Shown in pieces: positions 1,689-39,464 of a DNA stretch of 64,000 nucleotides. The notes beneath the pieces were generated by a model. It made no database searches and was not told where the DNA came from. It saw nothing but the letters and a program-made list of their open reading frames with translations. The stretch covers positions 124,001 to 188,000 of the forward strand of contig MNCI01002587.1 in assembly GCA_015680685.1 (NCBI GenBank). The letters run 5' to 3'. The position numbers were made by a program, and so were the translations under genes. This stretch comes from Gnetum montanum. Its lineage: Eukaryota > Plantae > Gnetophyta. Numbering within the stretch: position 1 is the first letter of the stretch; the number at the start of each line of letters is the position of its first letter.

Positions 1689-1900
1689 TGGCCCGGTAAG
1701 GCCTTAAAATGCCACGTCAGCCCGGTAAGGCCTTAAACTGCCACCTCGGCCCGGTAAGGCCTTAAACTACCACATCGGCCTGGTAAGGCCATAAATTGCC
1801 ACCTGTGGATCACATTTGGCTCGGTAAGGCCTTAAACTGCCACCCACGGCCCGGTAAAGCCTTAAACTACCATGCATCCCGGTGTGACGATAAACCACCA
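1689..1900 (+). repeat. Hairpin array upstream of the RT exon (7 units)
   Basis: ggta-A-GGCCTTAAAC-tgcc/tacc type x6 and ggtg-T-GACGATAAAC-cacc. Confidence 0.85.
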
Positions 1901-1993
1901 TCATGCATGTACACACGACTTACGCTGCCAGAGAACATCGAACAATACCTATTAGCTCATTCTGCTCTCTGTTTATTGGTAGGAGCAAGCCCG

Positions 1994-4900
1994 ATGGATT
2001 TTCAGCATTTATCCGCACCATTAATCATCGATGGGCCGTATGGAAAGATTGCGAGAAACATCGACATAAATCTCATCCACTTAAGTTTACCAACGGACAA
2101 CACAGTCATAGCCTCAACATAGCAAACGCTACATAACTACAGAGGTATGACAAAGCCCCTTGACATAGAAGCCAAAAACATCACCGAAGACCCGTTGACC
2201 GAAACCCCCATTGCCATGCCCGATGGAGAAATTAAAATATTAAAATTAAGTACATTACTGCAACCACAACTGGCCAAATACATAGAGGATGTGCTTAGGG
2301 ATAACATAAAAGTGTTCGCTTGGTCATATACGGACATGCCCGGATTAGAGCCTTGAATCATCCAGCATAATATTATCCTTGATCCAAAATTGAGACCAAT
2401 AAAACAAAAGGCATGAAATGTTAAACCTGAGATGGCATTGGCAGTTCGCAATGAGATCACCAAAGTTTATCAAGCTAGTTTCATTTGGGCTATCGATTAT
2501 GCTGATTGGGTATCCAACATGGTCATTGTCCCGAAAAAGAATGGAAGCATTCGCTTATGCATTGACTTCCAGGATCTAAATGTTGCAACCATAAAAGATA
2601 ATTTTTCCCTACCCAACATCGATCAACTTGTTGACTTGACCGATGGGCACGCCCTATTATCTTTTATGGATGGCTTCTCGGGATACAACCAGATATGCAT
2701 TAACCCGGAGCATCAGCTCCAGACTACCTTTATGACACCATGGAGAACCTTTTGTTACACAATGATGCCCTTCGATGTTAAGAATGCTGGGGCCACATAT
2801 CAAAGGGCGATGACATTCATTTTTAGCGATTACATGTTACACTCACTCAACAATTATGTGGATGATATCGTGGTTAAATCGAAGACATCGGAACAACATG
2901 TACAAGATCTTGACTTAGTACTAAAATTTTGTTTAAAATATGAGCTAAGAGTTAACCCAAAGAAATGCATCTTTGGAGTCAAAACAGGAAAAATGCTTGG
3001 ATTCATAGCCTCAGAAGTAGGGATACAAGTAGACCCCGATAAAGTTAAGGCCATAACAAACCTAAAACCACTTGGCAACCTTACCGAACTTCGAGGTCTA
3101 CAAGGTAGATTACAGTTCATCAGACGTTTCATAGAAAAACTAACAGACAAATTAAAACCTATGAACCACTTGCTATGCAAGAACGTCCATTTTGAATGGA
3201 CCCCACAATGCCAAGAAGCATTTGACAATATTAAAACAGCACTTGCCCGACTACCCACGGTTTATCCACCTCAAAATGATAAACCGTTTTACATCTACCT
3301 CACCACTTGGGATTCGTCAATTGCGTTTATGCTTTGCCAGAAACAAGATGATGGAACCGAAGTCCCTATCTATTACCTAAGCCATGCATTAGTTGCCCAC
3401 GAGAAAGAGTATAATGAGGTGGAGAGGTCATGTTTAGCCCTAGTCTTTTCCTTAAAGAAATGGCGACATTACCTCTTCCAGAACCAAGTTAACATAATCT
3501 GCAAGAATAATGTGCTCAGAGCCATTACCGGAAATATTTACAAATCAATCAGGATAGCTCATTGGAAAGCCATGATAACTGAGTTTGACCTACATTACAT
3601 AGCGCAATCATCAGTTAAGGGTCAAGCCATAGCAAATCAAATGACCATGTCACCAACGCACGATCAAGCAACAATAGAGCCAGAATTCTCGGACGAAAAT
3701 GTAAGCGCAATAGACATAGTACCCAATGACTACGATGCCATTCTAAACTTTGATGAAGCATCCACCTCCCGAGGTGGAAGTGCTACCGCTATCATCACCT
3801 ATCCCTCTGGGGAGATTAGACCCTTTGCTTATCATTTCAACTTTCACTGTACCAACAACATAGCAGAGTACGAAGGTCTCCTTAGAGGTCTCGCAGCAGC
3901 ATTGGCTTCAGACATCACACGACTGGTGGTCAGAGGAGATTCACAATTGGTTTTGAACCAAGTCACAGATATTTATACATGCAAAGCGCAACATTTACAA
4001 CTGTACTGTGACTTGGCAAAACATTTAATGAGGCGATTTGAAAACATCAATGTGCAACACATCTCCAGAAATGATAATACCATCGCAGATGCACTGGACA
4101 CCTTAGCGTTAAACATATCGCCTGACATGTTCCATACATTGCCAAGCTCCATAACCAGTTGTGCCAAACCAATAATCGATACTCTTGATACCTTGCCAAT
4201 AGCATCTATTAGCACAACACACGCGATAGAATGGTATGACAACATGAAAGAGTACCTTCTACGTGGTGAAACACCGCAACACTTAACGAATGTACAAAAA
4301 GACGCGGTACGAAAATGTTCTCGGCAATATGCACTGGTAGGAGACACACAGTGTTGTCGATCCTATGAAGGCATACTGTTAACATGCATTGGTAGCGCTG
4401 ATGCCCAAACCATCATTGAGCAAGTACATGATGGACTATGCGGAGGACACATAGCACCAAAAGCAATGGCAACAAAGATAAGATGCTTAGGCTATTATTC
4501 GCCACATATGGAGTATGACTGTCTCTCCAAGGCTAAGACATGTAGTACTTTTCAAAGACATAGTAATCTAATCCATGTCCCACCAAATGAGTTGCATACA
4601 ACACAAATCACATGGCCCTTTCAAAAGTGGGGGTTGGACCTTATCGGACCAATAACACCCTCATCTTCTGCAGGGCATAGTTTCATCATAATAGTAACAG
4701 AATATTTCATGAAGTGGGTAGAAGTTGTTCCCCTTCGAAAGACTACATCTAAACACGTATGCAACTTCATTCTCGAAAACATTGTAACCCGTTTTGGCAT
4801 CTCCATGACCATCATCATGGACAATGGGCCATAATTCAGTAGTGTCGAAACCAAAACCTTCTACGAAAGTCTAGGAATCAAAAACTCATTTTCATCCCCT

Positions 4901-5470
4901 TACTACCCTCAGAGTAATGGGCAAGCAAAGGCAACAAACAAAACCATTATTACAATACTTAAAAAGATGCTTACCCAAAGCAAGCGAAGGTGGCACGAAC
5001 AGTTGGTACACGCATTGTGGGCATATCGTACTATGCATCGGACTTCAATAGGTAAAACACCATATAGTCTTGTTTATGGTTTAGAAGCTATTTTACCTCT
5101 GAAATTATAGGTACCATCTCTAAGGATCACACTTTCCGGACTCCTCGACGAAGGGCAAAACAATGACCTACGCATCATTGACCTAGACTCGGTGGAGGAG
5201 GAATGCATACGTGCACTCGATCAGATCGAATGGTGCCAAAAATAGCAATGACAACGCCATCAGCATGACATTCATAAGTGCCCCATCAAAGAATGTGACC
5301 TTGTACTTAAGGCCATTCGGGAACACCCAGATAAATTCTCAGCCAACTGGAAAGGGTCCTACTTGGTCACCAAAGCACACGACAACAGAGCATTCAAGTT
5401 AGCTGATATGGAAGGACATGAGCTTGCAAATCCAACCAATCACTTGTTCTTGAATCCATTCCATATTTGA
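1994..5470 (+). pseudogene. pol: E1 pol: RT, RNase H, aRH, integrase; a few stops and frameshifts
   Basis: WVSNMVIVPKKNGSIRLCIDF, MDGFSGYNQI, YVDDIVV; aRH FDEAS...TNNIAEYEGL...GDSQLV...NTIADAL; integrase H-H-C zinc motif, WGLDLIGP, DNG. Confidence 0.95.
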
Positions 5471-5492
5471 GTACAAGCTCAGGTACGTGCGA

Positions 5493-5862
5493 GTCCTGGT
5501 ATCATGACTATAAATTGATACCATAGCTCGTCCTGGAATCATGACGATAAACTGGTACCATAGAACAGTCCTGGATCATGACTTAAAACTAGTACCATAG
5601 CCCGTCCTAGCATCATGACGATAAACTAATACCACACAACATCTGTAATGACAATAAACTAGCATCCATCTAGTACGACAGTAAACTACCACAGTTGCAT
5701 TCACCAGAGTCCGCTAAGACTATAAACTGGCTTGCCTCTTCACGGTCTGCCAAGACTAGAAACTGGCAATGCACCGTACACCATGATGCTAAATGGGAAA
5801 TGTCCAACGGTTCATGACATAAAACTAACCCATGATAGTCTGCTAAGACTATAAACTGGTGA
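5493..5862 (+). repeat. Hairpin array in E1 3'UTR (~11 units)
   Basis: e.g. tggtatca-T-GACTATAAAT-tgatacca and tgcca-A-GACTAGAAAC-tggca. Confidence 0.85.
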
Positions 5863-6867
5863 TTATATCTCTAGTGGCTCAATTTGTAGCTGCATTCAAA
5901 CTTTATCAGAATCACTGCACTGCTCGCCATCGGATGATCCTAACAACATTGTTGCCATATACAGTGCCTGAAATCCTATTAGGTGCCTTTGTTTCATCAG
6001 TAGCTATTTAATTCTAAGCTCACTCACTCGCTCATGGTTTTCATTTCTTCGTGGAGTTATGTTTGCAGGATGACACTCAGAGGTGTTCGTATAAGAATGC
6101 ACTTCATCATAAACAGCAAGGTGAGAAGTTGTTTACAGCACCTGTGACAAGACAAAATCAAACCATTCACTAGTACATCCCCCATTTCATATCCTACCTA
6201 TCCCTCGACACCTTAAACTTGGTTACATCCCGAACACACCCGATACAACCCAAAAACATCAAACATACCATTGCATATTGCGCCACTCTTAAGCAATTAC
6301 AACTCACAATATGACATTTGAGCATGAGCATAAGAACCCAAAAAAAAGGATGACAGTTGTCTTCAAAGCAAATGTTCATGCCTAAAACAATCAAGTAACA
6401 TCCCATTGCATGGCTTTGGCTCTCCGCCAACAGGCTTCCCCTAAATACTAAATAAGGGCCCTATTCCTCCAAAGAATGCAACGCATCATCACGTGGCTTT
6501 GGTCTTGCCAACAAGTCCTCTCAGACACTAACTAAGAGCCTTGTTTTGCCAAAGGATGCACATCTCATGTCTTGATTCTGAGTCTGCTAAACAATGGCTC
6601 TTAACAAGGATCAGCATGACCTGTACACACCAAAACATCCCCTTTACCATGCGTAATCCCTTGATCAGTTCCCAATCCCACAATCTCAATTTCCCTATCC
6701 AGCTACAAATTTCACCTCCTCAATCCTATGTACTACTGAACACGGTGCGATGACGTCTAGTTAGGTGGCAAAGGAAAAAGTCTCTATGGAGTTGCTTGTG
6801 GAGTTTTGCACTTCTTTTTCGACGCTTCTCGGGTCGATTCCTCGAAGCGTCAACAAAGAGGGGCCAA

Positions 6868-8185
6868 TGAAACACCACAAAATTTCAAGCTTAGTACTTC
6901 TCCAACAAGAATCGGGCTAAGTCATGACATTCCTTAGCATGACTAAAGCTTGAGGGCCCCACAGAAAGCTTCAAGCGGAGTCAAACTCAACAAGAAGCAG
7001 GTCCCTGGGACCTACAGACGACCATGATGATGTCTAGTATCAGACATGGTAACTTCGAAGATCAAGATACTTAGTTTTCACTAAGTATGCATTCTCAGCG
7101 TATATGCCCCAACATATATGCTCAAGTTTACATTCTCAGCGTATATGCCCAGCGTATATGCCCAGCGTATATGCCCAGCGTATACACCTAGCGTATACAC
7201 CTAGCGTATACGCTCAAGTTTACACCCACAGCATATATGCTTCACAAGTACGTTCAGCCTGTACGACTGATGCATACGCTCGACATGCAATCCCTGAAGA
7301 TGGCATGGAAACAGCACTGCAGAGAAAAATTTTGTACAAGGCAGTAACTTACATGAATAGAGCAACAATCAGCACATACGCCCAGCACATCCAGCATATA
7401 TGCCCAACATGTATAGCATATACACCCAACGTATGTCCTGCATGCCCGACGTATACGCCCAGAGTCTACGCTCGCCTGATACAGCGTATACACCAAGCAG
7501 ATGTAACATGTTGTACACTTGTAAATTTTATTCTTTCACACCCGGTCAACATGCCACGTGTCACCCAACCCGAGTCTAACATCTAAACCTGTATAAAAAT
7601 CTCAATTTTTCATTAGATCGGGGTTGGCAACTTTGAGCAAACTAGAGAGAAAAGACACTAAGAACCAAAGCAGAGAACCTTATACACTGGACCTCAACCC
7701 TGTACGTTGAACATATAGCCTCTACGCTATGCCTATAGTCTGAACCAGCACACAGTCATCCCTACATCCACCGGGGCTATTCATCCTCCTTGTGTGAAAG
7801 CCACAACTACGTTAGACCGGTGCATTCTAACTCTCACTTTGCAATAATATTGCTGCATTTTCTTTCTCAAATCTGTTACATTTTTCCATTTTTTTTTGCA
7901 TGTTTGCTACTTATGCTTTGGTACGTTTACGCTCCGTTTACATCAGTTACGTTGTTTACGCTCTATTTTACATCTTTTACATCATTTACATATAACCCAG
8001 TGTATAGCACCTCGGTGTATATTTGGGAAAATCCTTGCCTAATCCACACGCGGACCACTCAAGGTACTCTACCTTCAATTAATTCTAACTTGCCCTCAAG
8101 AGAAGGTAGGGTCTTCTGTGCATGTCCGGATATCTCCCAGTCTCTGTTTCCTTCCAACTGGAGACCGATGATTTCGGACGGTACA
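6868..8185 (+). repeat. E1 3' LTR (~1.3 kb), with PPT at 6855-6867
   Basis: TG...CA termini shared with the other Tat LTRs; cagcgtata array at 7090-7500; TATA-like gtataaaa ~7591. Confidence 0.9.
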
Positions 8186-9505
8186 TGGGTCCCATCCTCT
8201 AGAATTCTAGATTTTAGGTTCAAAATTTCAAGTTTTTGTAGCTCACGTTGTGGTCACACTGCACTCATGCTGCTAGTGCAATTCCAGCATGAGTCACCAA
8301 AATTGGTTCAAAATAGGGCACATCCAAGCTCAATTTTTGACTTGTAGATCACTTTTAAGGTCAGCCACAGTTAGGCAATTGATGTACCCAAGAAACAGGG
8401 TTCAAAAATAAAAAATTATTGTGAAATATGTCATTTTTAGCTCACTCATGCTAAGGTCATGCTAAGGTCACAATGACAGTGTGAGTGTAGCATGAGTACT
8501 AATAACGCCTAGACAAAAGCATGCCAAACACATGCTAAGGACACACCAAGAAAAAATCAACTCATGCTGGAAGTCCTGGTGAAATAGAGATGTCTCAAAT
8601 AGCCACAAAACCACTCAAATCTACACCCTACAGTAGTCAATTCAACGATCAACAAGTTTCAAGCGAGTCGGAGTTGATCAACCTCGTTGTACATTACCAT
8701 TTTCATTGTAAATGTTCATCAATTGTGACCTTCCCAAGCTCTTACGCTCTAAATTGTATCTACCTCCATGAGAGTAAGCTAGCTTGAGTAAGCTAACACA
8801 CGTTGTAAGATATAGTGCATCTAGTTAAGAACGTAGCATGCCCATGCATGTCCAACTCACATACAACTATCCATTGGACACGTGTCACATGATCCATTTT
8901 CCTCTCATCTCTTAGTTGTTGATTACATCCATGAATTCACCACTCGAACCTAGCCAAACCCTATAAATACCTTGTCAATTCACATAAATAGGGTTGAAAA
9001 TTTTGAAGGTTGATTGCTTAGGAAACTCAGACCAGCAATCATTGGGCACTTGAATACACTTGACTTCTAGCATCCAAACACTTCTGAAACACATCAGCCT
9101 AGGTCTTGGTTCTTGACCTGCCATCCACATATGCAGCTACGTTTTGACCAGTGCACATCCTTTCTAAGCAATACAATACCATTCATTTTGCCAGCCATTA
9201 TATTATTTACTCTATTTTACATTTAGTTTACGTTTTTTTGGCAATACTGTTATGTGTACGATATATTTGCATTTTGTACATCATTGTTTATATTTCAAAA
9301 GATCAGTTACGATAACCCTAGAAAAAGCTGTAGTTTACGCTTGGGGAAGTCCTTGGTTGATTTGCATGCAGACCATCCAAGGCACTCTGCCTTTGTTTTC
9401 TTTTCTAGCTTTCCCTTAGGTGAAGGCAGGGTTAGTTATGTCTACCCAACGATCTTTCGATTTGTTTTCCCTTCCAACCTTACACCAATGATTTAGGTTA
9501 GTACA
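8186..9505 (+). repeat. LTR of the E2 family in + orientation, 5' part displaced by the E1 insertion
   Basis: Reverse complement of 26048-27340; ends ...ggttagtaca; ctataaata ~8961. Confidence 0.9.
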
Positions 9506-10563
9506 ACGGGCTACGTTTTTGACCAGATGCACTATATCTTACAGTGTATGTTAGCTTACTCAAGCTAGCTTACACTCATGGAGGCACATACAATTTAGAG
9601 TGTAAGAGCTTGGCAAGATCAAAAATGATGAAAATTATGATGAAAATGATAATGTACAACAAGAGAGATTGACTCCGGTTTGCTTGAAACTTCTCGGTCC
9701 TTGAATTGACTACTGCGAGATGTCGATTTGAGTGGTTTTGTGGCTATTTGAGGCATCCTTGTTTCACCAGGACTTCCAGCATGAGTTCATTTTGTCTTGG
9801 TGTGTCCTCAACATGTGTTTGGCATGCTTCTGTCTGAGCATGATCAGTACTCATGTTGCCAACATAACCACAACGTGAGTGAGCTAAAAATGACATATTT
9901 CATACTAAATTTTGATTTTTGAAGTCTGTTTCTTAAGTACATCAATTTCCTAACTATGGTTGACCTTGACAGCGATCTGCAAGTCAAAAATTGAGCCTTT
10001 ATGTCCCTTGTTTTAAACCACTTTTGGTAACTCATGTTGGACTCACGCTGCTAGCATGAGTCCAGCATGACCACAGTGTGAGCTACAAAAACTTGCAATT
10101 TTGGACTTGAAATCTAGAATTCTGGAGGATGGAACTTGAAGTTGTCAACACTGAACTCTGAGGATGAATTGCACCTTGGAATCAAGTCATTTTGACTTAT
10201 TTTTAAGGCTCTCAAATTCGCTCATGCTATACTCATGCTTTTAGCGTGACCTCAACATGACCACTGCATGAGTGAAAAACTTTGTACCATTTGACCCAAA
10301 ATTTGAACTCCTAAATGATAAAACTTGGAGTGGACATTAGTGGCTCTTGAGGATGGCTTGCACCCTTAGATTTGGATCATTTTTTAGTTGATTTTGAAGC
10401 TTTTGGAGTTGCTCACATTGAGGGCAAGCTAGCTTGACAATGTGAGCAAGCTCACTTGAGCAAGCTGGGCATGAGTTCCATGTCTTAGTTAAATTTTACC
10501 TCCCAAATGCTCTAAAGGGATTGAGTTGTTTCAAAGTGTTAGGCCAAAATTAGTGGTGTTTCA
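9506..10563 (-). repeat. E2 3' LTR (U3 part; interrupted at 9505/9506)
   Basis: Direct repeat of ~26700-27736; PPT aaagagggatcaa on minus at 10564-10576. Confidence 0.92.
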
Positions 10564-11732
10564 TTGATCCCTCTTTATTGACATCTAGAGGAATCCACCT
10601 GAGAGGCATCAACAAGGAAGTGCAAAACACCATGAATAATCAAGTACCAAGCATTATCCATCGGCCCTTGATTGGACATCTTCGCACCGTGTTCAAAAGT
10701 ACATGGGATTGGGAAAGTGTAGTTCAAGATGCAAGGGGGATTGGTTGTAATTGAGGAATTAGGAGTTAATCAAGGGTTATAATTGCTATTGGAATTATGG
10801 GAGAGGAACGCTCTCATATGAATAAGCCATATCCTTAGTTCTTGTCGTAGCCTATTTGTAGTAGACTCAAAACCAAGACATAGGACGTGCGTTCTTTGGA
10901 GAAACATGACTCTTGTAGAGTGTTTACGGGAGCCCATTGTAAATAGCCAAAGTCACGCAATGATGTGCAACATGATTGTTTTAGACATGAGGGTAACTAT
11001 TTTTTCAAGAAAATGGCCTTCTCGCATGGGGCTTGTATGAGAATAGCCAATGGTCTTTGGTCTATGATGTAAATGGAGTCATGAAGACCTTTCTCGTGCA
11101 TTTTTCTCTTTGATATTTTTGTTCTTTTTCTTTTTTCTTGTTTGTTTCTTCTTTTCAATTGTTTTTCTTTTCTTTTATTTTCGAAAGACCTTGCTTTTAG
11201 TGCTATGCTCGTGCTCATGCGCTTGCATTTTGTATCATGTACCATGTACTGTGTTTTTTGTTGCAACTACTTAGAGAATCACAGTGTGCAACAGTGTATT
11301 GAGAGCTTTGGGATGAGTAGAATGTATCCAGGGAGTGTAATTGAATAGGATAAGTGGAATAGGGAATGTATCAAGAGCCAGGAATGTACTTATGAACAGA
11401 TTGATTAACCCAGTTGCATGCATCAGGAAGAATGTGAGACCTCGTCATCATGATGAAATGCATCTATGGGCGAATGCCTCAGGCATGTCATCCTACAAAC
11501 ACAACTCCAAGAAGACAAGAAAAATACAAATAATCTGGTTAACTAAGCACTTTAAACTTGAAAGAAACTAGGGAGATGGAGATGCCATGTGCAATTTCAA
11601 GGTAGGAAGAATCATGAACAACATCAACTTCATCAAGGTCTATGAGACAAATTATGTGGCAAGCCTTTGTGGAACATGTATAGCCAATTGCAGCAACATA
11701 TCTTTTCAAACATTTCCTGGTCATTGATGATG

Positions 11733-12060
11733 TCACTAGTTTATAGTCTTATCGGATTGTTGCAGGTTAGTTTCAAGTCATAACCCCTTGGATGATGCCA
11801 GTTTAGCATCGTAGTGGACGGTGCATTGCTAGTTTATAGTCATAGCAGACTGTGAAGAGGCAAACTAGTTTATAGTCTTAGTGGACTCCAGATGCTAGTT
11901 TTATGTCATGGTGGACAAATGTGGCAATTTAATGTCATGTCGGATAGAGCTCTATGGTGTTGGTTTATTATCATGACTCCAAGACACTCTATGGTGCTAG
12001 TTTCAAGTCATAGCCCCAAGACCGTTCTATGGTATCAGTTTTAGGTCATGATGCCAGGAC
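11733..12060 (-). repeat. Hairpin array in E2 3'UTR (~10 units)
   Basis: Minus strand tgcta-T-GACTATAAAC-tagca and ggcatca-T-GACCTAAAAC-tgatacc; homologous to 5493-5862. Confidence 0.85.
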
Positions 12061-12080
12061 TGTTACATACCTGAAATTGA

Positions 12081-15000
12081 TCAAACATAGTACTATTTCA
12101 AGTACACATGATTTTTGGGATTAACGAACTCATTCCCATCCATGTCAGCAAGTTTGAATGCTCCATTATTGTATGCCTTGATGACTAAGTAAGGCCCTTC
12201 CCAGTTAGCTAATAATTTATCTAGGTGTTCACGGATAGCCTTAAGGACTAGTCTCCTTCTTTAATTGGGTGCTTATGCAGATTGTGTTTGTGTCATTGCC
12301 GCTATTGTTTTTGGTACCACTAGATCTAATCAAGTGTTTGCACATGTTCCTCCTCCACCAAATCAAGGTCAGCAATGTGCATTTCATTGCTTTGGCTTTC
12401 ATTGAGGAGGCCTGAGAGAGCTATCTGCAATGAGGAAACCTATAACTCCAAAGGTAAAATAGCTTCAGATCCATATACAAGACTATATGGAGTTTTACCT
12501 GTAGATGTTCGATGTGTTGTTCTGTATGCCCATATTGTGTAGACTAGTTGTTCGTGCCATCACCTCTTACTTTAATTTAACATCTTTTTGAGCACCATGA
12601 TGATAGTTTTTTTTGTAGCCTCTACTTGACCATTGCTCTATGGGTAATAAGGTGATGAGAATGCATGTTTAATACCCAAGCTTTCACAAAAGCTTTTAGT
12701 ATCTACACTGTTGAACTGTGGCCCATTGTCAATAACGATGGTCATCGAAATATCAAAACAGGCCATGATGTTTTCTATTATGAAAGTAAAAATGTGTTTA
12801 GAAGTGGTCTTCCTAAGGGGAATAGCTTCTACCCATTTTGTGAAGTATTCAGTTGCAGTGAGAATGAAGCTATGCCCTATGGAGGATGATGGTGCTATTG
12901 GTCCAATTAAGTCTAATCCCCATCATTGCAATGGCCACGTGATTTATGTTTTGTGTAATTCGTTAGGTGGAACATGTATTAAGTTACCATGCCTTTGGCA
13001 AATGTCACATGTCCTGACCTTGGAAAAGCAATGGTACTCCATGTGTGGCCAGTAGTATCCCAAGCACCTAATCTTTGTTGCCATTTCTTTGGGTGCTATG
13101 TGCCCTCCACAAAGTCCTTCGTGGACTTGTTTTATAATCATTTGACCATCGATGCTACTAATGCACATCAACAGAATGCCTTCATAGGATTTGTGACACA
13201 AGGTGTCTCCTATTAATGCATATTGCCGAGAGCATCTTTGCACTACATCCTTATGAGCATTTGTTAGATGTTTTGGAGGTTCACCTCATAGAAGGTACTC
13301 TTTTATGTCATCATACCATTCTATTGCGTGTGTTGTGCTAACGGATGCTATAGGCATTTCATCAAGAGCATCGGTTATAGGTTCAGCACAATTTGTTCTA
13401 AAGCTAGGCAACACATGGAACATTTCGGGTGTCATGTTTAGGGCTAGTGTAGTAAGTGCATCGGCAATGGTGTTTTCGCTTCTAGGGACATGTTGTATAC
13501 CCACTTCTACTAATTTCCTCGGTAGATTTTTGGTCAAATCACAATATTATTGCAAATGGAGAGCTTTGCATGCATAAATTTCTGTGACTTGATTAATGAC
13601 TAACTGTGAATCGCCTTGAACTACAAGACATGATTCCCAAAGTTAATGCTGCTTGAAGACCTCTAAGAAGACCTTTGTATTCTACCATGTTATTGGTACA
13701 AGGAAAGGTCAATCGGTAGGCGAAGGGTTGGATTTCTCCAGAGGGGTATGTTAAAATGGCCACAGCACTTCCTCCTTAGGAAGTTGAAGCTCCATCAAAA
13801 TAAAGGATCACCTCGTAGTTATCAGGCATGGTGTCTATACTATTAACATTCTCATCAGGGAATTCATGGTTAATCATTGCCTGATCATGCATTGGCGAGA
13901 TGGTTAATTATGTGACTATTGCTTAACCTTTTGTGGAGGATTGAGCAACATAGTGTAAGTCAAACTCGGCAATCATTGGTTTTCACCTAGCTATCCTAAT
14001 CAACTTGTAGATGTTATTAGTGATGGCACAAAGTACATTATTCTTGCAAATGTTGTAGACTTGATTATAGAAGAGATAATGCAGCCATTTCTTCAAGGAG
14101 AATATGAGGGCAAGGCATGATTTCTCTATGTCATTGTATCGTTGTTCATAGGCAATTAAAGCATGGCTTAGGTAATACACAATGATCTCAACTCCATCTT
14201 TAGGTTTTTGACAAAGCATTGATGCAATGGAAGAATTGGAAGTTGCAAGATAGATGTAGAAGTGTTTATTGCTCTGTGGGGGATAAATGGTCGGTAGTTG
14301 AGCTAGCTCTTGTTTTATGTTCTTGAATGCTTCCTGGCATTGTTGAGTCCATTGGAAATGCACATTCTTTCATAATAGGTGTTGCATGGGTCTCGAATTA
14401 TCTGTCAACATTTCGATAAAGTGTCTAATGAATTGCAGTCTACCTTGGAGACCACGTAGTTCAGTAAGGTTTTCTGGTAGCCTTATTAGGGTCTACTCGT
14501 ATCCCTATTTCAGAGACTACGAAGCCAAGAATTTTTCTAGTTTTGACACCAAAGACACAATTCTTTGGGTTGAGCCTAAGGTCATATTTGAGACAACATT
14601 TAAACACTAGGTCTAGATACTTTGCATGTTGTTTGATTTTCTTAGATTTAACCGTGATGTCGTCAACATAATGATTGAGCAAGTTGAGCATGTAATCATT
14701 AAATATATATGTCATTGCTCATTGATATGTAGTGCCTGCATTTTAAAGACCAAACGACATCATCGTATAGCAGAATGTATGCCAAGGCATCATAAAGGTT
14801 GTTCTAAGTTGATGTTCCGGGTTGATTCTTATTTGGTTGTATCCTGAAAATCCATCCATAAAGGATAATAGCGCATGCCCAGCAGTTGTGTCAATAAGTT
14901 GATCGATGCTAGGTAGTGGGAAGTCATCCTTTATAGTGGCTGTGTTGAGATCACAGAAGTCAATGCATATGCGTATACTACCGTTCTTCTTAGGGACTAT

Positions 15001-15531
15001 GACAATGTTTGATACCCAGTCAGAATAGTCAATAGCATGGATGAAACCGACTTGGTAGAGCTTTTTGATTTTAGCACGGACTGCTAACGCCACCTCAGGT
15101 CTAACTTTTCATGCCTTTTGCTTCACCGGTTTGATTTTTCCATCAAGAATGATATTGTGTTGGACAATTCGGTGGTCTAATCTTTGCATATTGTTATATG
15201 ACCATGTGAACATTTTTATATTATCTTTCAGTACTTGAGTGATGTCACTAACAAGTTGTGAGTCCAGTAGGGCACTTAATTTCAATGTTCTAGCTTCGCC
15301 ATTAGAGGTGGTAATGGGGACTTCAACAAGGGAATCTTCATTGATATTATCAGCCTCTAGATCTAAATTTTTAGTTAGATTTTTAGGCGAGTCTGATGTT
15401 TCCTGAGTGGAAGCTATTAAGTAAGTATAAGCAGATGGGTCTAGATCCAAGGATTCTAGATTGATTACTCTTTTTACCTCCCTATATGATCCACTGAGAG
15501 ACAATGTTGAAAGAATGTTCTTGGCAGCCAT
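12081..15531 (-). pseudogene. pol: E2 pol: RT, RNase H, aRH, integrase, fragmented
   Basis: ORFs 15109-15531, 14743-15093, 14461-14715, 13983-14363, 13286-13537 and 12944-13243 align colinearly with E1 pol. Confidence 0.95.
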
Positions 15532-16099
15532 GTGTTTTCTCCTGCCAATTTAAATCAAGAGCGAAGTAAGTGATGTATGCTTGATGAAGGAGTCATTAAA
15601 TGTAAATAGGCATTGGGTAATTAATCTATGTACTAGCAAAATTATGAGACGTAGCAGTGGTCATGGTAGTTTTAGGCCATACCGGGCTAATAATATTCAA
15701 GTCATCTTGTATTTTTGATTGAGTGTATAGAGCATTGCTCATTTCTAAATTTTGTGTGAACAATAAGTTTGTGGGGCTTTAAAGTCTTATGGATTTTCAT
15801 GCGCATCGTTATGTATTTATATATATATATTGATTTTTAACCTTTCTCCCCTCCTTTATATAAAATTTTTTATTTCTAATATTTTGGCCTCATCTCTAGA
15901 GGCTGGAATGATGAGGAATACTAGGCAAGCATGAAATAAAGATGACATAAATAATAACATGCAAACAAAATTTAAACATGAAACATGATAAATTTAAATA
16001 AAAAAGAGAAAGTAAAATAAGAGAAAATAAATTAAATTAAATTGAGAATGGATATTAGGGGTTAATAAAGGGGGCTTTGAGATACAAGGGCATCATTTG

Positions 16100-17135
16100 T
16101 GCTAGCGTGAGTTGGGCATCTGGATTGCAGCGTGAGCATCATCGTCAACGTCAGCATGAGCTACAATGTGAGTTACAGGGTAGCCATGAAGGGCAAAGGG
16201 AAAGCAAGTTGAGGCAAAGGGAAGAGGCAAGAAAATCTGGCATTTTTGGAGGAGAGTAAAGAGCTACTCCAGCATCTCCCCTAAGCCAGGATTCCAACAT
16301 GGGATGGAGCTCTGAATAGGTAGATTTGTTTCCTCTTGTTTTCTATAGTATTCTATTCACAGCGTTAGCTAGGGTAGCATGACTTCTATGGTCATGATTT
16401 TGGGTTGTTCTTGGGGATTCAGGGCATGATTGGGGCGTGAGTGGCCCAGGAAGTGCACAGTCAAATAGTTAGATTTTTTTTGTTTTTTTCATTTTTACAT
16501 ATGGGACGAGTGTAGCATGACTGCCAGGGCTTTCTGGGCAGTGTGAGCTTTTAGGCAGGCCCCAGTGTGCATTTTAGGGATGCCCAGCATGAATGACAGT
16601 CTAGGGCAAGCCAACATGAGTGGTTTAGGATGTGAGTGCCTAGGGGATGTGTAGGGCGTGAGTGCCCAGGGAATGTACACAGTGTGAGTGCCTAGGGAAT
16701 GCGCAAGGCATGTGTAGGATGAGTTGGATCTCTTTACATTTTGTTCACTAAGTGTTAGGGATATCTAGGGTAGTGTGAGCTTTTTCCAAGGCAGCGTGAG
16801 CTACATTGCAGGGGGAGGCTTGGTTTTTTTTGGCATTGTGAGCTACGTTGTATGGTTAGTTTCCAACATGAATGCCAAGGCTTCTTGGGTAGCATCAATT
16901 TTTCTTGTGCAGTGTGACTGCCAGGGCTTCCTGGGCAACATGAGCACAAGGTTCCCTGGGCAACATGATCTGCAAGGTTCTTAGCATGAGTTAGAATGCA
17001 GGAAACCTAGTGTGATTTTTGCAGGAGATAGGCAACATGAGTTACTGGGAACAGGCCCCAGCATGAGTTGCTGGGAACAGGCCCAGCATGAGTTCCTACA
17101 GCGTGAGTTACTAGGAACAGGCCTAGTGTGAGTGT
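16100..17135. repeat. E2 motif array, core CAGCGTGAG/CTCACGCTG (deaminated to catgag, gtgtgag)
   Basis: Many agcatgag/agcgtgag/agtgtgag copies; positional equivalent of E1 318-1420. Confidence 0.8.
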
Positions 17136-17342
17136 CTAGGCCCCTATTTGTTAAGATGTGAAGATGTAAATTGTTTGGTAAGATGTTTATTATTTGCAAG
17201 TTTTATATCTACTTAGTTTATTATTTTCTTAGGATAGATAATTTAAATACATTTCTATGTTTTTCTAAGTTTATGTTGAATATGTGAATGTTCATGTTTT
17301 TACACTTCTGTATTTATTTTATGTTGCTAGCAATAAACTACT

Positions 17343-20300
17343 ATGTAAGAGATTTCAATGTACCCCAGCGAGCATTAAGTATACTAAATAAATATTGGTG
17401 TCCTTGTCTCATGGGGTGAAGCTGTGTGATTAAATGTTATTTATGTGTTTGGTTTATGTGATTGCATACTATTGTTAGCACTTAGACTCTTTACTTACCT
17501 AATGTTTTGGCTGTATGCAGGGAACCTAAACCTTCTCTTCTTGTGGTTGAGCTTGTTGGTGTACATGCTTGGTTTGGCCCCTTTGGACCAGACATACCTC
17601 CTTATGACATGCGCATTGGGCCTCATGTAATATGGTTTCATCCCAGTGTTGGTTCATTTTTGTCATTCATCTTGCAAAATTTTAGTGTGATTATATGGTC
17701 TCACTTAAGTGAATAGTTGGCTCTTGATATCATTGAGACAATGTTGCTCAGGTCTACACAAGACATGCTTGCCTTCATTACCGACATAGATGAGGGACCT
17801 TTTAAAGTTGAGGGAGGCCCTGATGAGGGTCCTAAATCTATTTTTCCTTTGACTTGTGTATGGGAACTGCCTACTTGTTGCCATTATAACAGTAGCAACA
17901 CACTTTTCCTAACCTTTCGTCTGCACACTCTATTCCAAAATCCACTTGGGACACTGTATAGACTGGACAGGTATGCTCTTTTCTAATTTGCTTAATTTTT
18001 GATTCTTTTAAAATTATACAGTTTTCTATGCATAAATATTATTTTTCTATGCAGGCCTCGATTTGATGAGAATGGGATGCATGATGATGATGGTGGGCTT
18101 GCATTAGCACACACAGTGTTGGAGGCATTCATGGTGGGCCCCATTCTTCATGCTACGATACTATACCAGACAAAAGTGGCTATTGTTAACTACCATAGGC
18201 AATTCTCAAGGGATTTTGAATGTTTTCAAGTTTGTGGTTGGTTGCATGAGGATTAGTCTTCTAATGGGTCAATTTTTCCTCAGAGCATTGGTCCTACACC
18301 TAATGTGCCTATGCCATTTACTGATGGTAAATGATCACATTCTAGACTCCATTTTCTTTTTGTTGCATCATCGTGTACTATATTTTTAACCTTTCTCTTT
18401 GTGTTTTTTTTTACAGTAGCCATCTTTTCTGATGAAGTTACCATTGTATTAGGGCATACTGAGGCCACCCATTTTATGAAATATGGGGAGGTAGAGCAGT
18501 CACAACAATGGTTGCAGAAGAAAGCTCCTGAGTTGATCATCAGTTGCCTTACCTTAGTAGGTCTGATGGACTTGTTCACTACTTTGACTCCAAATGTTCC
18601 GACGATTGAGATGATCACTATTGTAGATTCTTTCAGTGATGATGCTTCCCATTTTACTACACGAGTTCAAGGAGTTAAGGTATCTTTCCACCTGACCATT
18701 GTGTTCCTTTTCAATCTTTTTGGCATGCCCATGAATGGTGCCAGGGTGGCCATAGATAAAGCAACTAAAGAAGGCTAGGTCATAAAAGAGCTTGAAGAGT
18801 GGTTAGGCGTGTCTTGGGGTCCTAAAGGTTTTTCCATATAAAATGATACCTAATCACTAGAGATGAACTTCTTGTACCCTCTCTTTCGGGAACGAGCATT
18901 CCCTAAATCTATCTCTCAAGGAAGAAACCTTGGGATCGAGTCTGCACGTGTCATACACGTAATCTTAGAGATATGCATGCATTATAACTAGGCACAGTTT
19001 CTTGGATCTAGCTTTCATGGAGAGATTTTTAGGTTACGTTCAAACATCAACACCAAATCCCATTTCATGTTTGCTTTCTTCACAAGGTACCTATGTAGGT
19101 TTGCTGAGTTCCTAGTAGTTTATGGTGATAACCGTTATATATTGAGAGATCATTCATAGTTGTCCTGCCCCTGGATTCATCATTTGTTTAGCACCACTAG
19201 ATCTCAGGACCCACCCAATGGCATCGATGAATCAGTGTTTGTTACTACTAGGGGTGTAGCTAGTAGTTCCCATCATTCCTATGATAGTTTGGGATTGGAA
19301 CTGCCTATACTGCACACGTTTGTTAAAGGGGCTGAACATATGATCCATGAGACCGTCGGAAGATCTAAGGTGAAGGTGAAGAGAAATGAACACCCAAGGG
19401 AGCTTGCTCCTGACGTGAGACCACCAAGAGTGAAGAGGATCCGCTTCATATTACGAGTGGAGGGTGAGTGTTTTTTATTTTATTGTTATGTATTTATATT
19501 TATTTATTTTTTAGTTTATATGTTTATTAATCATACGTATATGCTATGTCATACGAACACTAGGATTCTAGTGTTATTAGAGGAAAGTCCTGAGAGGGAG
19601 AGAGAAGTCTTGGCCTCGATGGTTGAACCAGAAGTGATTGTCACAAGGCCAGGGGAAGAAGCAATCAAGAAACCTCCTTCTCCACAAGAGAAAGATGTGA
19701 CAAGCATCGTGGGGACAAAGCTTGCTGAGGCTTTGGATGCACTTAGGCATTCAAGTGATGAAAGAGGTGTTTTCGATGGTTTCTTTGATGGATCTTTGCA
19801 ACTTGGTGATCCGCCCAAGCTTACTAGCAAAGGGATTTTTGGTATGTTCCTTTTAGCACAATCCATGTTTTCATACCTTTTAACTTTTATGTGTTGTTCT
19901 TGATTATCTTGATTATTCCTAACATTAGAGGTAGATGCGAAGGTTTCTAAGGCACATACATCCTGGATGGAGGTGTTAGGATCACAGGCCCCATTTGAGG
20001 TACCCTCCCATGCTTGTCCCACCTCCACTAACCAGCTAAGGCCATGGCCTGAGATGCCTAGTAAAATGGATTTTTTCACAGGCATCGTTAATGATATGGT
20101 CGCTCACCTACAACAAGCTCATCCAAAACTAGGTATATGTATGTTATGTATTATGCTAAGTGTTTGGATTTATTGTGTTTCTTTGCATTCATCATTTTTT
20201 TTAGATAATAGCTTATTCATGTGTGTGATTCTTACACCTACAGGTGCCGAGCTTCAATGGGATCCTTCTGAGGCTACTCATATTGATGCCCTCCCTGAAT

Positions 20301-21196
20301 TGCCAAGGAATATTGAGCAAGTCCCTAGAAAGGTTTACGATGCAATTTTTAGTTGCATCGTACTAAATGCCAAGTCACTTTGGACTTGTAGGAATTCAAT
20401 TGAATATCTATGAGACGAGGTGCAATCACTGAGGGAAGCACTAGCAAATGAGAGAGAGGAGAAGAGGGATCTCCAATCCTATTATGATTTTTCTGCTACA
20501 AGGCTATTTGGTGATAGCACCTGGTGCACATCTGAAATCACCTATGCACGTTACTAGATGGTTTTGAACAGCAAAGTGTAGGCGAAATGGGATTTAGTAG
20601 AATAAAGCGCACATATGGATTTGCTGAATAGGAAATGTTACGATTGGAAATCCTTTACTACTAAAGTATGGAAGTGGGGTCAGGAGCAAAAGGATCACAA
20701 GAATTAGTACAAGAAATGGTTAAAGGAGGAGTCTATTGAACATCGTCGGATGGAAATGTTCATTGATGGGCTAGGCTTGCATCCTACTTATGATAGGTTT
20801 GCCAAGTGCACCAAGGTGGAGGGATCTCCCAAGAGAATCATTACAACTGCCTCTAAGGAGGCTTCGACAGGCATGTTCTCTCTCGAGCACCCTACCTGGA
20901 CTTTGGTGGAAAAGGGTAAAACCTTAGCTGGTATTGATCTTGGCCTAGAGGAGGATTGGGCAAATGTGCCTGAGAAGGAGATTCTATGGCTTTTGGAGGC
21001 CAGCCTAAGGCCTTCCTCACTTATGAGTATTTTATTATGGCACTTACTTTTGTATGGTTTTATTGTTTTTATTGTTAGTATTATTGTTTTTTCTGGCTTT
21101 GCATTCCGAGTTGTTTTATTACTCTTACCAGTTTTTTTGTTTTTTATTCTATTATAGGGACATGTTAATGATGGAGATGGTCCCCCAATTGAGTGA
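17343..21196 (+). pseudogene. E2 antisense multi-exon accessory gene (~1000 aa): FCP1/SCP-like pseudo-phosphatase + plant transposon protein-like domain + coiled coil
   Basis: Phase-consistent GT-AG exons 17343-17344, 17521-17970, 18055-18326, 18417-19463, 19581-19841, 19929-20132, 20244-~21023, and a possible 21158-21196; no frameshift; stops are single C>T or G>A changes. Confidence 0.8.
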
Positions 21197-21594
21197 GAGC
21201 GGATGATGAAGAGGATCTTGGGGACAAACCCCTTCCATAAGGTTATTGTTAATTAGGATTTAGCTATTAAATGTTTTGGATTTTTGGATGTTTGATGGAA
21301 ATATATGATGGAAAAATGTAATAATATGGATCTAATCATGGCATAATGTGTTGGAATTTCATTACCATATTGACATTTAGTATTTTTTTTATTTTTAAAT
21401 GATTTCTCTTTTTGTTTGTTTTCTCAAGTATTATCATGAACATATGTGTATAGCTAAATGTAAAATGAGGGAACAAAACATAAATCCAATATTTGTAGAA
21501 GAGGAAAGTAATGAGAAGGCATGAATCAAAATTGTAACTTGTAAACAAACATTTAACGTAGTGTAACAAGAGTTTGTGAATTTGTACATCTTGA

Positions 21595-21835
21595 GCTCTA
21601 GTTTAAAGCCATTTCAGGCTGTGTTCATCCGTTTAAAGTCATGATGGACTGTCAAATCTATTGTTAAACAAAGAGGGTTTACCAGTTTTAGGCCATAGTG
21701 GGCCGAAAGCAATAACAGTTTTAGGGAATTTTAAAAGGAACTGGCCATTTCTAACCATGCCTATTTTAACATCATTGCGGACGTTCGTTGGTAGTTTTAA
21801 AGTCATGCTAGATGATTGGTAGTTTAACATCATTC
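21595..21835 (-). repeat. Hairpin-motif array just inside the 5' end of the large intron
   Basis: Minus strand TGGCTTTAAACT, TGACTTTAAAC, TGGCCTAAAACT, TGACTTTAAAACT and TGATGTTAAACT. Confidence 0.7.
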
Positions 21836-21935
21836 CAGACGGTTGGGGGTAGTTCGCCCTAACCATTAAGTTGTTTTTTAATCCTTTGTAGTTTGACATG
21901 AGGGGTAGGGCATGTAGGCATGATCTTATACTCAC

Positions 21936-24900: not shown

Positions 24901-25600
24901 TCCCGATTACCTGAGGTCAGAAGATTGATCCTACATTAGTTTGATGAGGGGGTTGTTGGGACTATACTTGCAGAGGTATGATGGAAGTGGACGTATCAAA
25001 TTGAATGTTGGGCATGAAGAAGGTGGGAATGGAAGTAGGTATTTCTTGTTGGGAAAATGGTGCTCAAGTGTTTGTAGATGAAGGAGGAAGCACAATTTCT
25101 TCTAGGAAAGGTTGGAATAATGGATTTGTCTGGGCGTGGGGACTAACAGTATGGTATGAATCCCCATGCTCAGATTAGGTTGCAAAATCATCCTCCTCAT
25201 CTCCACTCTGACGCTCTATTGGAGGTGGCTATAAGGCTTGACTCATCACCATGAGAAGCTAAGATATAAGTTGACGATGGTATTCAGAAAGAGGGATTAT
25301 ATCAAATGCTAAGGGGATCAACTCATGACCTCCTTTGTAAATAAGTTCATAGTTTCATTTCACTTCTCTCTCTACATGATCGATAAGAAGGTTGGCTTGA
25401 ATCTTCACACAGATGAAGTTATATTGTTCTAGTATGAGAGTTACATAAGTAGGGTCTTTTCCCTATAGCCTAAGTGACTGGCACATAGGGCCTTGGGGGT
25501 TTATCTATTCAATAATAGTTATGGGTTCCATCGCAGTCACAGGGTTCAAGGTTTCAGCCCCAAAGTTAGAGATTGGTAGTGTCATAGTGTTGATCTGGGA
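21936..25600 (-). pseudogene. gag: E2 gag-protease
   Basis: KYNGEGDPNAHL...SLMGKALDWY; zinc knuckle FCEYHQCCGHGTNYCFTLK; protease VHVDDSAATNVIP...NMILGRPWL; 5' limit approximate. Confidence 0.88.
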
Positions 25601-25609
25601 GGATTTCAT

Positions 25610-25770
25610 AGTGAGCATGAATAAACTGGGCTGGACGAGTTGAGCGTGAGTAACTGACAGCGTGAGAAAACTAACAACGTGAGCAAGCTAAGAGTGTGAC
25701 CAAGCTGACAACGTAACTGATAGTGTGAGTAACCGACAGCATGAGCAAGCTAACAACATGAGTAATTGAC
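25610..25770. repeat. ~18-bp tandem repeat of the E2 motif in the 5' leader
   Basis: agcgtgagtaactgac / agcgtgagcaagctgac units. Confidence 0.75.
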
Positions 25771-26025
25771 TTGTCAAGTTGGGGAGATGTAGGTTGAAAG
25801 TGGTGAGAGAAACTAACTATGATTGATCGATGGTGGTAGGAACGTTACTTGGAAGACTATCTATGAAGCATCTCATTTAACCAATGTGTGTATGCTATTT
25901 GGGTTCTGATGGTGGAGATGTAGAGTTTAAAGTGCTTGCTATGATGTAAGAGTTTTGTAGATTCGCAATGTCATAAGAATTTTGCAGGTTATGATCTCGA
26001 TTAATGTAAGAGTTTCGTAGGTGGT

Positions 26026-26041
26026 CCTCCTTCTAATGTCA
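26026..26041 (-). promoter_or_regulatory. E2 primer binding site, tRNA-Asn type
   Basis: tgacattagaaggagg = TGGCGCTAGAAGGAGG with three transition changes; complement of the plant tRNA-Asn(GUU) 3' end as I recall it. Confidence 0.7.
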
Positions 26042-26047
26042 ATTTAT

Positions 26048-27736: not shown

Positions 27737-27995
27737 ATAAAGGTTGATGATTTTAGTAAGGAAATTAACTTAAAGGATCATCAAGAAGAGGAATTTGAGT
27801 TTAAGTCTAAACCAAAGTTAGACACCTTCATTAGAAGTCTTTTCTAATGTTCAGCTTCCCAAACAACTACACCTAACTCCATGTCTCTTCCCTCATCGGT
27901 CGGACAAGTCCCTCAGCCTAATTCCCCTCATGTCCACTCTACCATGTTTGAGTCTACATTCATTATTGTCACACACCAAGCATAATGCATGCCTC

Positions 27996-38850: not shown

Positions 38851-39464
38851 GTCAAACAAAAAATGCATTGTAAATATATTATCCCTTCTATTGCTAAAAA
38901 AAGCTTGTTCACCTTCAAAACCTTATACCATGTTTCATGAATTGTTTTATTCCTATACGTCTTTTTAATGCTATTCCATACTTGCTAGGTAGGCATGGAC
39001 CATGGTCCACCAAGAGCAAAAATTGGCAAATCACATGGTATACCATGGTCTAAAATTGGAAAATCGCATTTCTTGTCATGGCCTAACATTATAAAAACAT
39101 CATAACTTATTTGCAATTTAGTTTACAACCATGCCACCTAGTCAATTTTTCTTCTTTATTACATTATAACCATGTAAGTTAGCAAACTCACCCTTATACC
39201 ATAATCGTAACATGAAACTGTGGAACATGAATGAAACCCTCCTTCCCTAATTCATTCACTAAACTAAGGATGAACTAGTAGTTCAAAAGGAGGAAATTTT
39301 TAACAATGCTAGGATGGTGGGAGATTAAAAAATCAAAAAAAAAATTAAATTTGGATGGGCCTTACTAGAAACCTCCCAACCAATGGGGTTTAAGGCCTAA
39401 AACCCCTCTACACTAAGGTTTAACCCATATGAAGCCTAGAAAAACATCTTTTAACTTGAAACCC

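Follow-up and report, generated by a model that had tools for sequence, protein, structure and literature searches.

Tandem units resembling a viral exoribonuclease-resistant RNA in an Ogre-like retrotransposon family of Gnetum montanum

Known systems and the element pair

Coremin (xrRNA-C) is a published 20-nt motif of RNA viruses that resists the exoribonuclease Xrn1 (Dilweg 2019, PMC6546385; 2023, PMC10520033). According to these papers, it requires a first hairpin of 3–4 bp in which pairing outweighs sequence, a loop of the form YGAD or YGNNAD (7–8 nt are tolerated, 4–8 nt were tested), a core made of A16, A17, C18, U19 and the essential A20, and a second hairpin directly 3′; the same sources report that it stalls scanning ribosomes about five-fold and raises −1 frameshifting in vitro. 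A 2021 review stated that xrRNAs had been characterised in viruses only and that their presence in eukaryotic genomes was an open question. In the open-access literature, we found an exoribonuclease-blocking role in print for viruses only, and no coremin or other xrRNA in a transposon. No solved coremin structure was found in the literature to 2023.

Among retrotransposons, the closest described system is Ogre, of the Tat group (Neumann 2019, PMC6317226; Ustyantsev 2015, PMC4408406). The element described here shares with it the RT-RH-aRH-INT order (the aRH between RH and INT is an Ogre feature, common to Retand too), an extra ORF, tandem repeats in the non-coding parts and a gap with stops and splice sites, here predicted ones, between Gag-PROT and RT, across which only some Ogre transcripts are spliced. 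The gap of Ogre has a mean length of 274 bp, whereas here it spans 6.4 kb and holds an antisense spliced gene.

The window, i.e., the whole 64,000-nt stretch of Gnetum montanum DNA that was analysed, contains two tail-to-tail copies of an Ogre-like Ty3/gypsy family, with copy A on the + strand and copy B on the − strand. Their parts and predicted introns are the following:

1981–1982, + strand: predicted RT splice acceptor of A, aligning with 15542 in B
2206–5470, + strand: pol of A (RT-RH-aRH-INT), frame open at 2417–4834 with stops elsewhere, INT stop at 5468–5470
5483–6068, + strand: predicted 3′-UTR intron of A, donor 12 nt past the INT stop
6868–9506, + strand: 3′ LTR of A, preceded by a polypurine tract
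9508–10563, − strand: truncated 3′ LTR of B, 84.6% identical to the 5′ LTR of B
11493–12070, − strand: predicted 3′-UTR intron of B, donor 10 nt past the INT stop
12081–15420, − strand: pol of B (RT-RH-aRH-INT), interrupted by frameshifts and stops, INT stop at 12081–12083
15542–21935, − strand: predicted PROT-RT intron of B (6.4 kb), donor after 21936, acceptor at 15542
17500–21250, + strand: antisense accessory gene of several exons, located in the spacer and disrupted in the B copy, bounds approximate
21859–25500, − strand: gag-PROT of B, broken, upstream bound approximate, PROT stop at 21859–21861
26047–27736, − strand: 5′ LTR of B, with a decayed stretch behind it that resembles a primer-binding site

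The identity between its two LTRs indicates that copy B is old and decayed. Pfam domain order places the aRH between RH and INT in both pols, and no protein found exceeds 42% identity to pol. In a quick tree built without labelled Ogre reference elements, the RT forms a long, weakly placed branch (support 82–90), and a protein scan of viral contigs gave no relative. Homology searches returned no homologue of the antisense protein, and no RNA-binding domain was found in this gene, whose intron near 21023–21157 is spliced in RNA from related copies.

The predicted donor and acceptor sites are good and common to both copies. On an ad hoc matrix, the 3′-UTR donor of A is the best of 344 sense-strand GT sites and that of B the best of 646 GT sites. 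The predicted PROT-RT intron of B encloses the PROT stop, the arrays at both of its ends and the antisense gene, and an AUG lies directly behind the RT acceptor in both copies. RNA runs were chosen by species label and most aligned reads were less than 95% alike, so that the RNA evidence reports on relatives of these copies. No PROT-RT joint occurs among the 15 of 23 read joints listed, at low depth, and poly(A) reads run through the 3′ donor of B unspliced, array included.

Arrays and predicted fold of the unit

A total of 34 units in five arrays was recognised, all on the element-sense strand of copies A and B:

1689–1901, + strand: 7 units of copy A, period about 29, array end about 80 nt upstream of the predicted RT acceptor
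5492–5862, + strand: 10 units of copy A, loops of 6–11 nt and second stem of 4–8 bp, beginning 9 nt inside the predicted intron
11733–12061, − strand: 10 units of copy B, 77% identical to the 3′ array of A
15663–15689 (intact) and 15771–15797 (degenerate), − strand: two remnant units of copy B, ahead of its RT acceptor
21595–21842, − strand: 5 scored units of copy B, starting 18 nt past the PROT stop

A sixth unit of the PROT-side array (21758–21784) was called by the model. The original prediction had reported this motif in sense orientation and with differing stems that still pair; it was found at each of the places named, the quoted stems do pair, and exact GRCNNWAAAC loops number 21 on the element-sense strands vs 1 antisense. 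It had also confined the motif to introns: all arrays do lie in predicted introns, for which no spliced read was seen among the RNA reads, mostly from relatives, and since these predicted introns make up most of the non-coding interior of the element, the link is partly trivial.

Two array positions begin shortly past stop codons (PROT and INT), as in coremin-bearing RNA viruses, where the motif is usually untranslated and of sense orientation, and the first unit lies 31–39 nt from the ORF end in three arrays; the two pre-RT arrays have no known stop codon ahead of them. The 3′ arrays sit 9 nt behind the best-scoring donor of each copy. In genomic contigs, the depth of a 36–37-nt unit far exceeds that of its flanks, and the unit loops back onto itself. 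Compared with 100 local dinucleotide shuffles, the whole window contains 31 GRCNNWAAAC loops vs 7.7 expected, 19 vs 0.67 when an upstream 3-bp stem is added, and 10 vs 0.03 with both stems. These shuffles leave tandem duplication unmodelled, and covariation is thus the stronger test.

The motif had been described as a bulged hairpin, a description that overlooks a second helix. In each unit, the first helix is a 4-bp hairpin (NGYC / GRCN′) with a loop of 6–11 nt, followed by a linker of constant length (7 nt) whose last bases are AAAC; the second helix is a 4–8-bp Watson-Crick helix between loop bases and the bases 3′ of AAAC. With the upstream NGYC paired to GRCN′, each unit is a predicted H-type pseudoknot, a fold that we regard as very likely.

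Covariation was evaluated on the 34 units of the two copies, anchored without using pairing, plus viral loci. Among the 34 units, Watson-Crick pairs exceeded those of shuffled alignments at S1.2 (32 vs 19.7; U-A 24, C-G 8), S1.4 (24 vs 9.5; A-U, G-C, C-G and U-A), S2.3 (26 vs 9.9; G-C, C-G and U-A) and S2.4 (25 vs 17.1). The inner three pairs of the first hairpin are standard in 33/34, 32/34 and 26/34 units and the fourth in 26/34, with pairs swapped. For the second helix, 110 of 136 cells are paired in register, against 29–52 in slid registers. The 24 units with six-base loops are 82.8% paired, and their score is 0.453, compared with 0.227 after shuffling and no more than 0.106 in slid registers; in this subset, pairs with two-sided change and extra pair types were not above shuffles. 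Broken pairs amount to 45/272, of which 28 are A.C or C.A. Between orthologous units of A and B there are 15 breaks, against 6 two-sided and 7 one-sided changes. As the units are tandem kin, these counts overstate independent events.

The compensatory changes in both stems include double transversions, which are beyond the reach of methylation, so that the covariation is not merely one of methylation-driven transitions. Furthermore, the 3′ arrays of A and B are 77% identical, whereas identity is 51.5% at the third positions of pol and 55% elsewhere in that intron, and the AAACU core is kept in 43 of 45 cases between them. Single-strand folding of the arrays, a method blind to pseudoknots, gave z from −0.4 to −2.6. 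The double transversions and the strand specificity support the earlier proposal of selection on RNA structure.

Likeness to coremin and occurrence elsewhere

The units share with coremin (BNYVV RNA3, cucumoviruses and six-base-loop variants) the first hairpin, the linker length, the AAACU core, the tandem copies and the post-stop position. AAAC is intact in 28/34 units, with a linker equal in length to that of coremin. YGNNAD fits 15 of the 23 six-base loops, and in 7 of the remaining 8, position 2 carries A instead of G, which is the direction of deamination. Four of the 34 units (1758, 11841, 15678 and 21610) satisfy every hairpin, loop and spacer rule. The A20 position holds A in 18/34 units and G in 14/34, a change not found among those tested in the coremin reports, and 9/34 units have loops of 9–11 nt, outside the tested range of 4–8. 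A downstream hairpin is present in 17/34 units vs 16.8 by chance; the hairpin of the next unit begins 5–12 nt past the second stem, farther than in BNYVV.

Coremin is viral, whereas these units belong to a retrotransposon of the nuclear genome and stand in arrays that hold up to 10. Moreover, among distinct RNA-virus units with six-base loops, the loop-to-3′ helix is Watson-Crick only at its first pair (59/65, then 4, 20 and 11 of 65), while the element units have 4–8 Watson-Crick pairs and loops of up to 11 nt. With its fully Watson-Crick loop-to-3′ stem, the unit appears to be a new variant of coremin, although the published viral alignments might already include long-stem forms. The 34 natural variants and the covariation of their helices define the register of the pseudoknot, which had remained unsettled after mutagenesis.

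The hairpin, the A-rich linker and the canonical loop-to-spacer pseudoknot are also those of xrRNA-WCC (Dilweg 2023, PMC10321173), which has a four-base loop starting with G and needs a G8-C18 pair. No loop of the 34 units starts with G, and the last loop base is U in 20, A in 12 and C in 2; in the chosen register, the C of AAAC is unpaired and the helix begins one base later and is longer than in xrRNA-WCC. The tandem xrRNAs of flaviviruses and tombus/luteoviruses (Vicens and Kieft 2021, PMC8374639) have larger and different folds and are a precedent in working only, as tandem roadblocks that yield non-coding or coding subgenomic RNAs. No Rfam family gave a credible match, either to the window or to the arrays of the viral contigs. 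Likenesses to the K-loop, SECIS, hammerhead, attC and branch-point were dropped, the bases that these presumably need not being conserved in the units.

Stem-blind and loop-based scans recovered coremin-type tandem units in viral contigs, some of them redundant. With redundant contigs counted, the first unit lies at most 40 nt from an ORF end in 31 of 41 viral-contig loci; 22 of the 28 viral loci scanned encode RNA-virus proteins. A model built from the window units alone scored viral units up to 31 bits, at loci preselected by similar patterns. Of 49 stretches from one scan, most were unrelated tandem repeats without stems, and two pattern scans of prokaryote genomes gave 0 matches. We also scanned 80 other Tat/Ogre loci, many on contigs ending near pol: none carried arrays (best model E 0.28), and motif matches showed no strand bias (11 sense vs 14 antisense). 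The idea that the arrays are general across Tat/Ogre was thus rejected for the loci examined.

Proposed function and alternatives

Since the arrays match a viral motif that stops RNA-degrading enzymes, they likely shield parts of the element RNA from decay, and blocking of 5′-3′ exoribonucleases is probably the function for which they were selected. XRN4 is cytoplasmic and acts after decapping or slicing; XRN2 and XRN3 are nuclear and act after intron debranching. By analogy with the viral motif, host XRN enzymes would halt about one base ahead of the first intact unit, leaving stable RNAs that start at the arrays: one non-coding (3′-UTR or intronic), one with spacer plus pol and one with pol. 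The units farther 3′ would serve as reserves for the first, and they may provide the downstream hairpin on which the viral motif depends. Splicing, if it proceeds as in Ogre, would strip all three roadblocks from the Gag-Pol message. More tentatively, arrays within intron ends could exploit host decay to yield a non-coding RNA like the sfRNA of flaviviruses, damping XRN or silencing, plus an uncapped pol RNA; splicing would be the switch, by taking the arrays out.

If exoribonuclease blocking is confirmed, these would be the first functional xrRNAs from a eukaryotic nuclear genome; the arrays make the question raised by the review testable, and they suggest that some non-coding tandem repeats of Tat/Ogre elements work as RNA devices that counter decay by the host. 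In standard RNA-seq of mixed relatives, a weak test in which one array was examined closely, read starts did not accumulate at the first 3′ unit. An equally mixed and weak comparison gave no excess of RNA over DNA at the 3′ array, the array/INT-end depth being about 2–3 in poly(A) RNA vs 5–6 in DNA contigs.

The same fold could have been selected as a ribosome roadblock, an explanation that may coexist with nuclease resistance and that we consider rather unlikely. Behind the PROT and INT stops, the arrays would halt scanning or reinitiation after termination; ahead of RT, the array would bar translation of Pol alone from unspliced RNA and so restrict Pol to a Gag-Pol product of the spliced message. 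The effects of coremin on ribosomes in vitro agree with it, as do the arrays that flank the PROT-RT gap and follow stops, the AUG behind both RT acceptors and the partial splicing of Ogre across this gap. However, little is left to block after INT, the last ORF, and the joints listed show no PROT-RT splicing; a slippery-like heptamer occurs within 25 nt upstream in only 2/34 units, which makes frameshifting unlikely. Still less probable is the role first proposed for the units, a psi/RRE-like set of multivalent sites that tag unspliced genomic RNA and are bound by Gag, by an accessory protein or by a factor for splicing or export. Sense-specific, repeated units with a constant A-rich core, all inside predicted introns and close behind the best donor of each copy at the 3′ end, would suit such sites. 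But the unit is also present in RNA viruses and phage contigs, where Gag is absent, its invariant bases are those required for protein-free stalling of Xrn1, and the 80 other Tat/Ogre loci, from elements that package RNA as well, do without arrays. The absence of a detected RNA-binding domain in the antisense gene and the unspliced poly(A) reads across the 3′ donor lend no support either, and the unit matches a protein-independent roadblock RNA.

Finally, the units could be tandem repeats from the hypervariable non-coding parts of Tat/Ogre elements, neutral or relic, that duplication and homogenisation have multiplied; their likeness to coremin would then be accidental or long dead. Tandem arrays are frequent in those parts (PMC6317226, PMC4408406), the 36–37-nt unit is deep and self-looping in genomic contigs, and many units are decayed. 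We judge this explanation very improbable, because two interleaved helices covary with double transversions, the motif stands strand-specifically at three distant positions with different stems, and the 3′ arrays are conserved above the neutral level.

Tandem arrays in an Ogre-like Ty3/gypsy family

The DNA of the window is plant-type and rich in repeats. It holds two copies, A and B, of one Ty3/gypsy family, together with relatives and one different element, as follows (coordinates, strand, feature):

up to 9506, forward: copy A, tail to tail with B
27736 to 9508, reverse: copy B, tail to tail with A
21859-21861, reverse: Gag-PROT stop of B; RT begins more than 6 kb further on
17500-21250, forward: antisense intron-containing gene in the PROT-RT gap of B
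1-221, reverse: antisense intron-containing gene in the PROT-RT gap of A
36300-43500, forward: relative C, gag-PROT; polypurine tract and LTR start of the family at 43496
about 58028, reverse: further family LTR start, another relative
52600-55050, reverse: a different, decayed gypsy pol, no units close by

The likeness between A and B is 71% across pol together with the 3′ array and rises to about 80% in the LTRs; no pol was found in C by tblastn. The Pol domain order, RT-RH-aRH-INT, is the one given for Ogre and Retand (Neumann 2019, PMC6317226). The closest match to the family Pol, best of 1030 protein hits, has 42% identity, and in a quick tree with 109 rows RT formed a long branch of weak support. 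The B region is common to DNA runs of five organisms, at 22-41% of sampled words.

Anchoring the repeated units by sequence likeness alone, without using pairing, we obtained 34 units in five arrays, at the places where the original prediction had located its motif (unit 1828, mis-anchored by one base, was retained). The sense-strand bias that it claimed was also found: on the strands of A and B, exact loops number 21 in sense and 1 in antisense. Across the whole window we counted 31 loops, where 100 local shuffles gave 7.7; the upstream stem accompanies 19 (0.67 shuffled), and both stems accompany 10 (0.03 shuffled). A model made from the 24 six-base-loop units recovered all arrays, and its best matches outside them, at 41657 (E 5e-4) and 39003 (E 0.03), are both on the sense strand of relative C. 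The decayed gypsy pol at 52600-55050 is an internal negative control. Weak, decayed units are also visible on the sense strands of C and of the relative at about 58028.

We found no array in the 80 top-ranking Tat/Ogre loci out of 566, which come from metagenome contigs, total 746 kb and have 32-50% identity: matches were 11 sense and 14 antisense, and the best E value of the model search was 0.28. Thus, as far as examined, the arrays appear restricted to one lineage. As a separate observation, the depth of a 36-37-nt unit at 12016-12061 in genomic contigs is far above that of its flanks and 5-6 times that of the INT end, a figure that is not a copy number; the unit loops back on itself there, so the arrays of relatives are longer, or relatives contain a derived satellite.

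Predicted pseudoknot fold and covariation

The unit is a predicted H-type pseudoknot, in which NGYC pairs with GRCN′ (helix S1), the loop pairs with the bases following AAAC (helix S2), and the two helices interleave. The stem pairs of the bulged hairpin originally proposed stand and correspond to S2, but the hairpin-only form does not, a second helix being present. S1 was recognised in a stem-blind scan of viral contigs requiring three consecutive loops, since some stretches, chiefly in phage contig L042, had the loop of the window with varying stems, preceded by a constant GTCC. Most of the 49 stretches from that scan were unrelated repeats.

In the 34 units, the second S1 pair is U-A in 24 and C-G in 8; the fourth is Watson-Crick in 24, against 9.5 in shuffles, with A-U, G-C, C-G and U-A all seen. 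The third S2 pair is Watson-Crick in 26 (9.9 shuffled), as G-C, C-G or U-A, and the first two S2 pairs showed no excess over shuffles. In register, 110/136 S2 cells are paired, against 29-52 when slid. For the 24 six-base-loop units, the pair count gave 82.8% paired and a score of 0.453 (0.227 shuffled, at most 0.106 slid); two of the five pair-count measures gave no excess over shuffles. Broken pairs amount to 45/272, 28 of them A.C or C.A. Cytosine deamination does not make double transversions such as the swaps between G-C and C-G and between A-U and U-A, and the claimed selection on RNA structure withstands the methylation alternative. The units are relatives of one another, so independent events are fewer than these counts. 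Comparison of nine orthologous A/B unit pairs gave 44 unchanged cases, with two-sided differences in 6, one-sided in 7 and breaking ones in 15. Between the copies, identity is 77% in the 3′ array, 51.5% at pol third positions and 55% in the remainder of the intron that holds this array.

Likeness to a viral exonuclease-resistant RNA

The viral motif coremin (xrRNA-C) begins with a hairpin of 3-4 bp, whose pairs can be exchanged and whose loop is YGAD or YGNNAD; a linker in which A16-A20 are essential and a second hairpin complete it. Coremin halts Xrn1 and scanning ribosomes without protein (PMC6546385, PMC10520033, PMC10321173). YGNNAD fits 15/23 six-base loops of the element units, and 7 of the 8 others have A in place of the G at position 2; 28/34 units keep AAAC intact. 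All the hairpin, loop and spacer rules are followed by four of the 34 units. Nine have loops of 9-11 nt, 14 have G instead of A20, and a second hairpin behind the units occurs no more than by chance. Furthermore, S2 is Watson-Crick throughout, whereas the 65 distinct six-base-loop units of RNA viruses have a Watson-Crick pair at its first position alone. The arrays are not a member of the Watson-Crick variant xrRNA-WCC as defined, since they lack its G8-C18 pair; on motif match, they are a putative variant of xrRNA-C and would work like it.

Viral contigs with units are the following:

L129-L158, L008, L010, L015, L018: tandem six-base-loop coremin units
L026, L027, L034, L048: tandem six-base-loop coremin units
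L042 4990-5600; L016 16-96; L023 4750-4830: long Watson-Crick arrays, tailed-phage contigs (SPP1-type portal, Mu F)

A second viral scan gave 32 stretches with tandem units, and 22/28 scanned loci encode RNA-virus proteins. Where a viral locus carries two or more units (41 loci, some contigs redundant), the first unit lies at most 40 nt from an ORF end in 31; measured likewise, the element arrays after PROT (one) and INT (both) start 31-39 nt from ORF ends. In L042, the stems of the 12 scored units covary, in an S2 register identical to that of the element, upstream of a probable terminase gene; phage arrays could possibly block RNase J-type decay. Two pattern scans of prokaryote genomes found no units. 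About 40 viral contigs, mainly picorna-, tombus- and noda-like, carry tandem coremin units directly behind stop codons; one, L133, is a giant-virus bin. The RdRp-encoding L018 has a weak GIR1 lariat-capping ribozyme match at 2466-2644 (41.4 bits against a gathering threshold of 100).

xrRNAs were known solely from viruses as of 2021 (Vicens and Kieft 2021, PMC8374639). The available text of Gezelle 2025 mentions neither coremin nor retro- or transposons, and in the accessible open-access literature we found no coremin or xrRNA in any transposon.

Predicted introns, possible function and the antisense gene

By ad hoc splice-site scoring, the best sense donor lies 10-12 nt behind the INT stop in both copies, with a shared acceptor about 580 nt past it. 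At 21936 lies a strong donor of B, and the acceptor before RT is common to both copies; the phase of the B donor matches that of the A acceptor, as expected for an Ogre-type splice. The intronic location originally claimed holds for 34/34 units, which lie at the ends of predicted introns, while splicing of these introns was not seen among 15 of 23 joints (four RNA runs, 10600-28000, low depth). One intron of the antisense gene was spliced in each run. Poly(A) reads on 11990-12340 carry tandem units and pass the donor unspliced; no loose read end fell at the donor among 18 of 224, and no read-start pile-up was found at the array. In these read analyses, most reads stem from relatives less than 95% alike.

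If the units fold as predicted and stall Xrn, 5′-3′ decay would halt at the arrays, and stable RNAs with 5′ starts there would remain, which may benefit the element; we consider such decay roadblocks the probable role of the arrays. A ribosome roadblock that makes Pol depend on splicing would recall the other activity of coremin and appears unlikely. The protein-binding signal of the original prediction, set beside a motif that acts protein-free, is less likely still. That the units are neutral repeats, related as they are to one another, seems very improbable beside the double transversions.

The antisense multi-exon gene lies in the PROT-RT gap of B, and its first exon is present in A too, where it resembles NIF/FCP1-like phosphatases (PF03031, E 3.8e-4, just under the cut-off). 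In the product of A, the DxDxT motif appears to be replaced; sequence searches found no homologue. It is a candidate CTD-phosphatase-like accessory gene, which inside an LTR element would be notable in its own right. Short palindromic repeats, possibly its promoter DNA, lie upstream of it in A and B and in the 3′ LTR of A (314-900, 7083-7440, 16000-17100). One piece, 16240-16320, has several hundred-fold cover in oligo-dT runs, in reads with other flanks.
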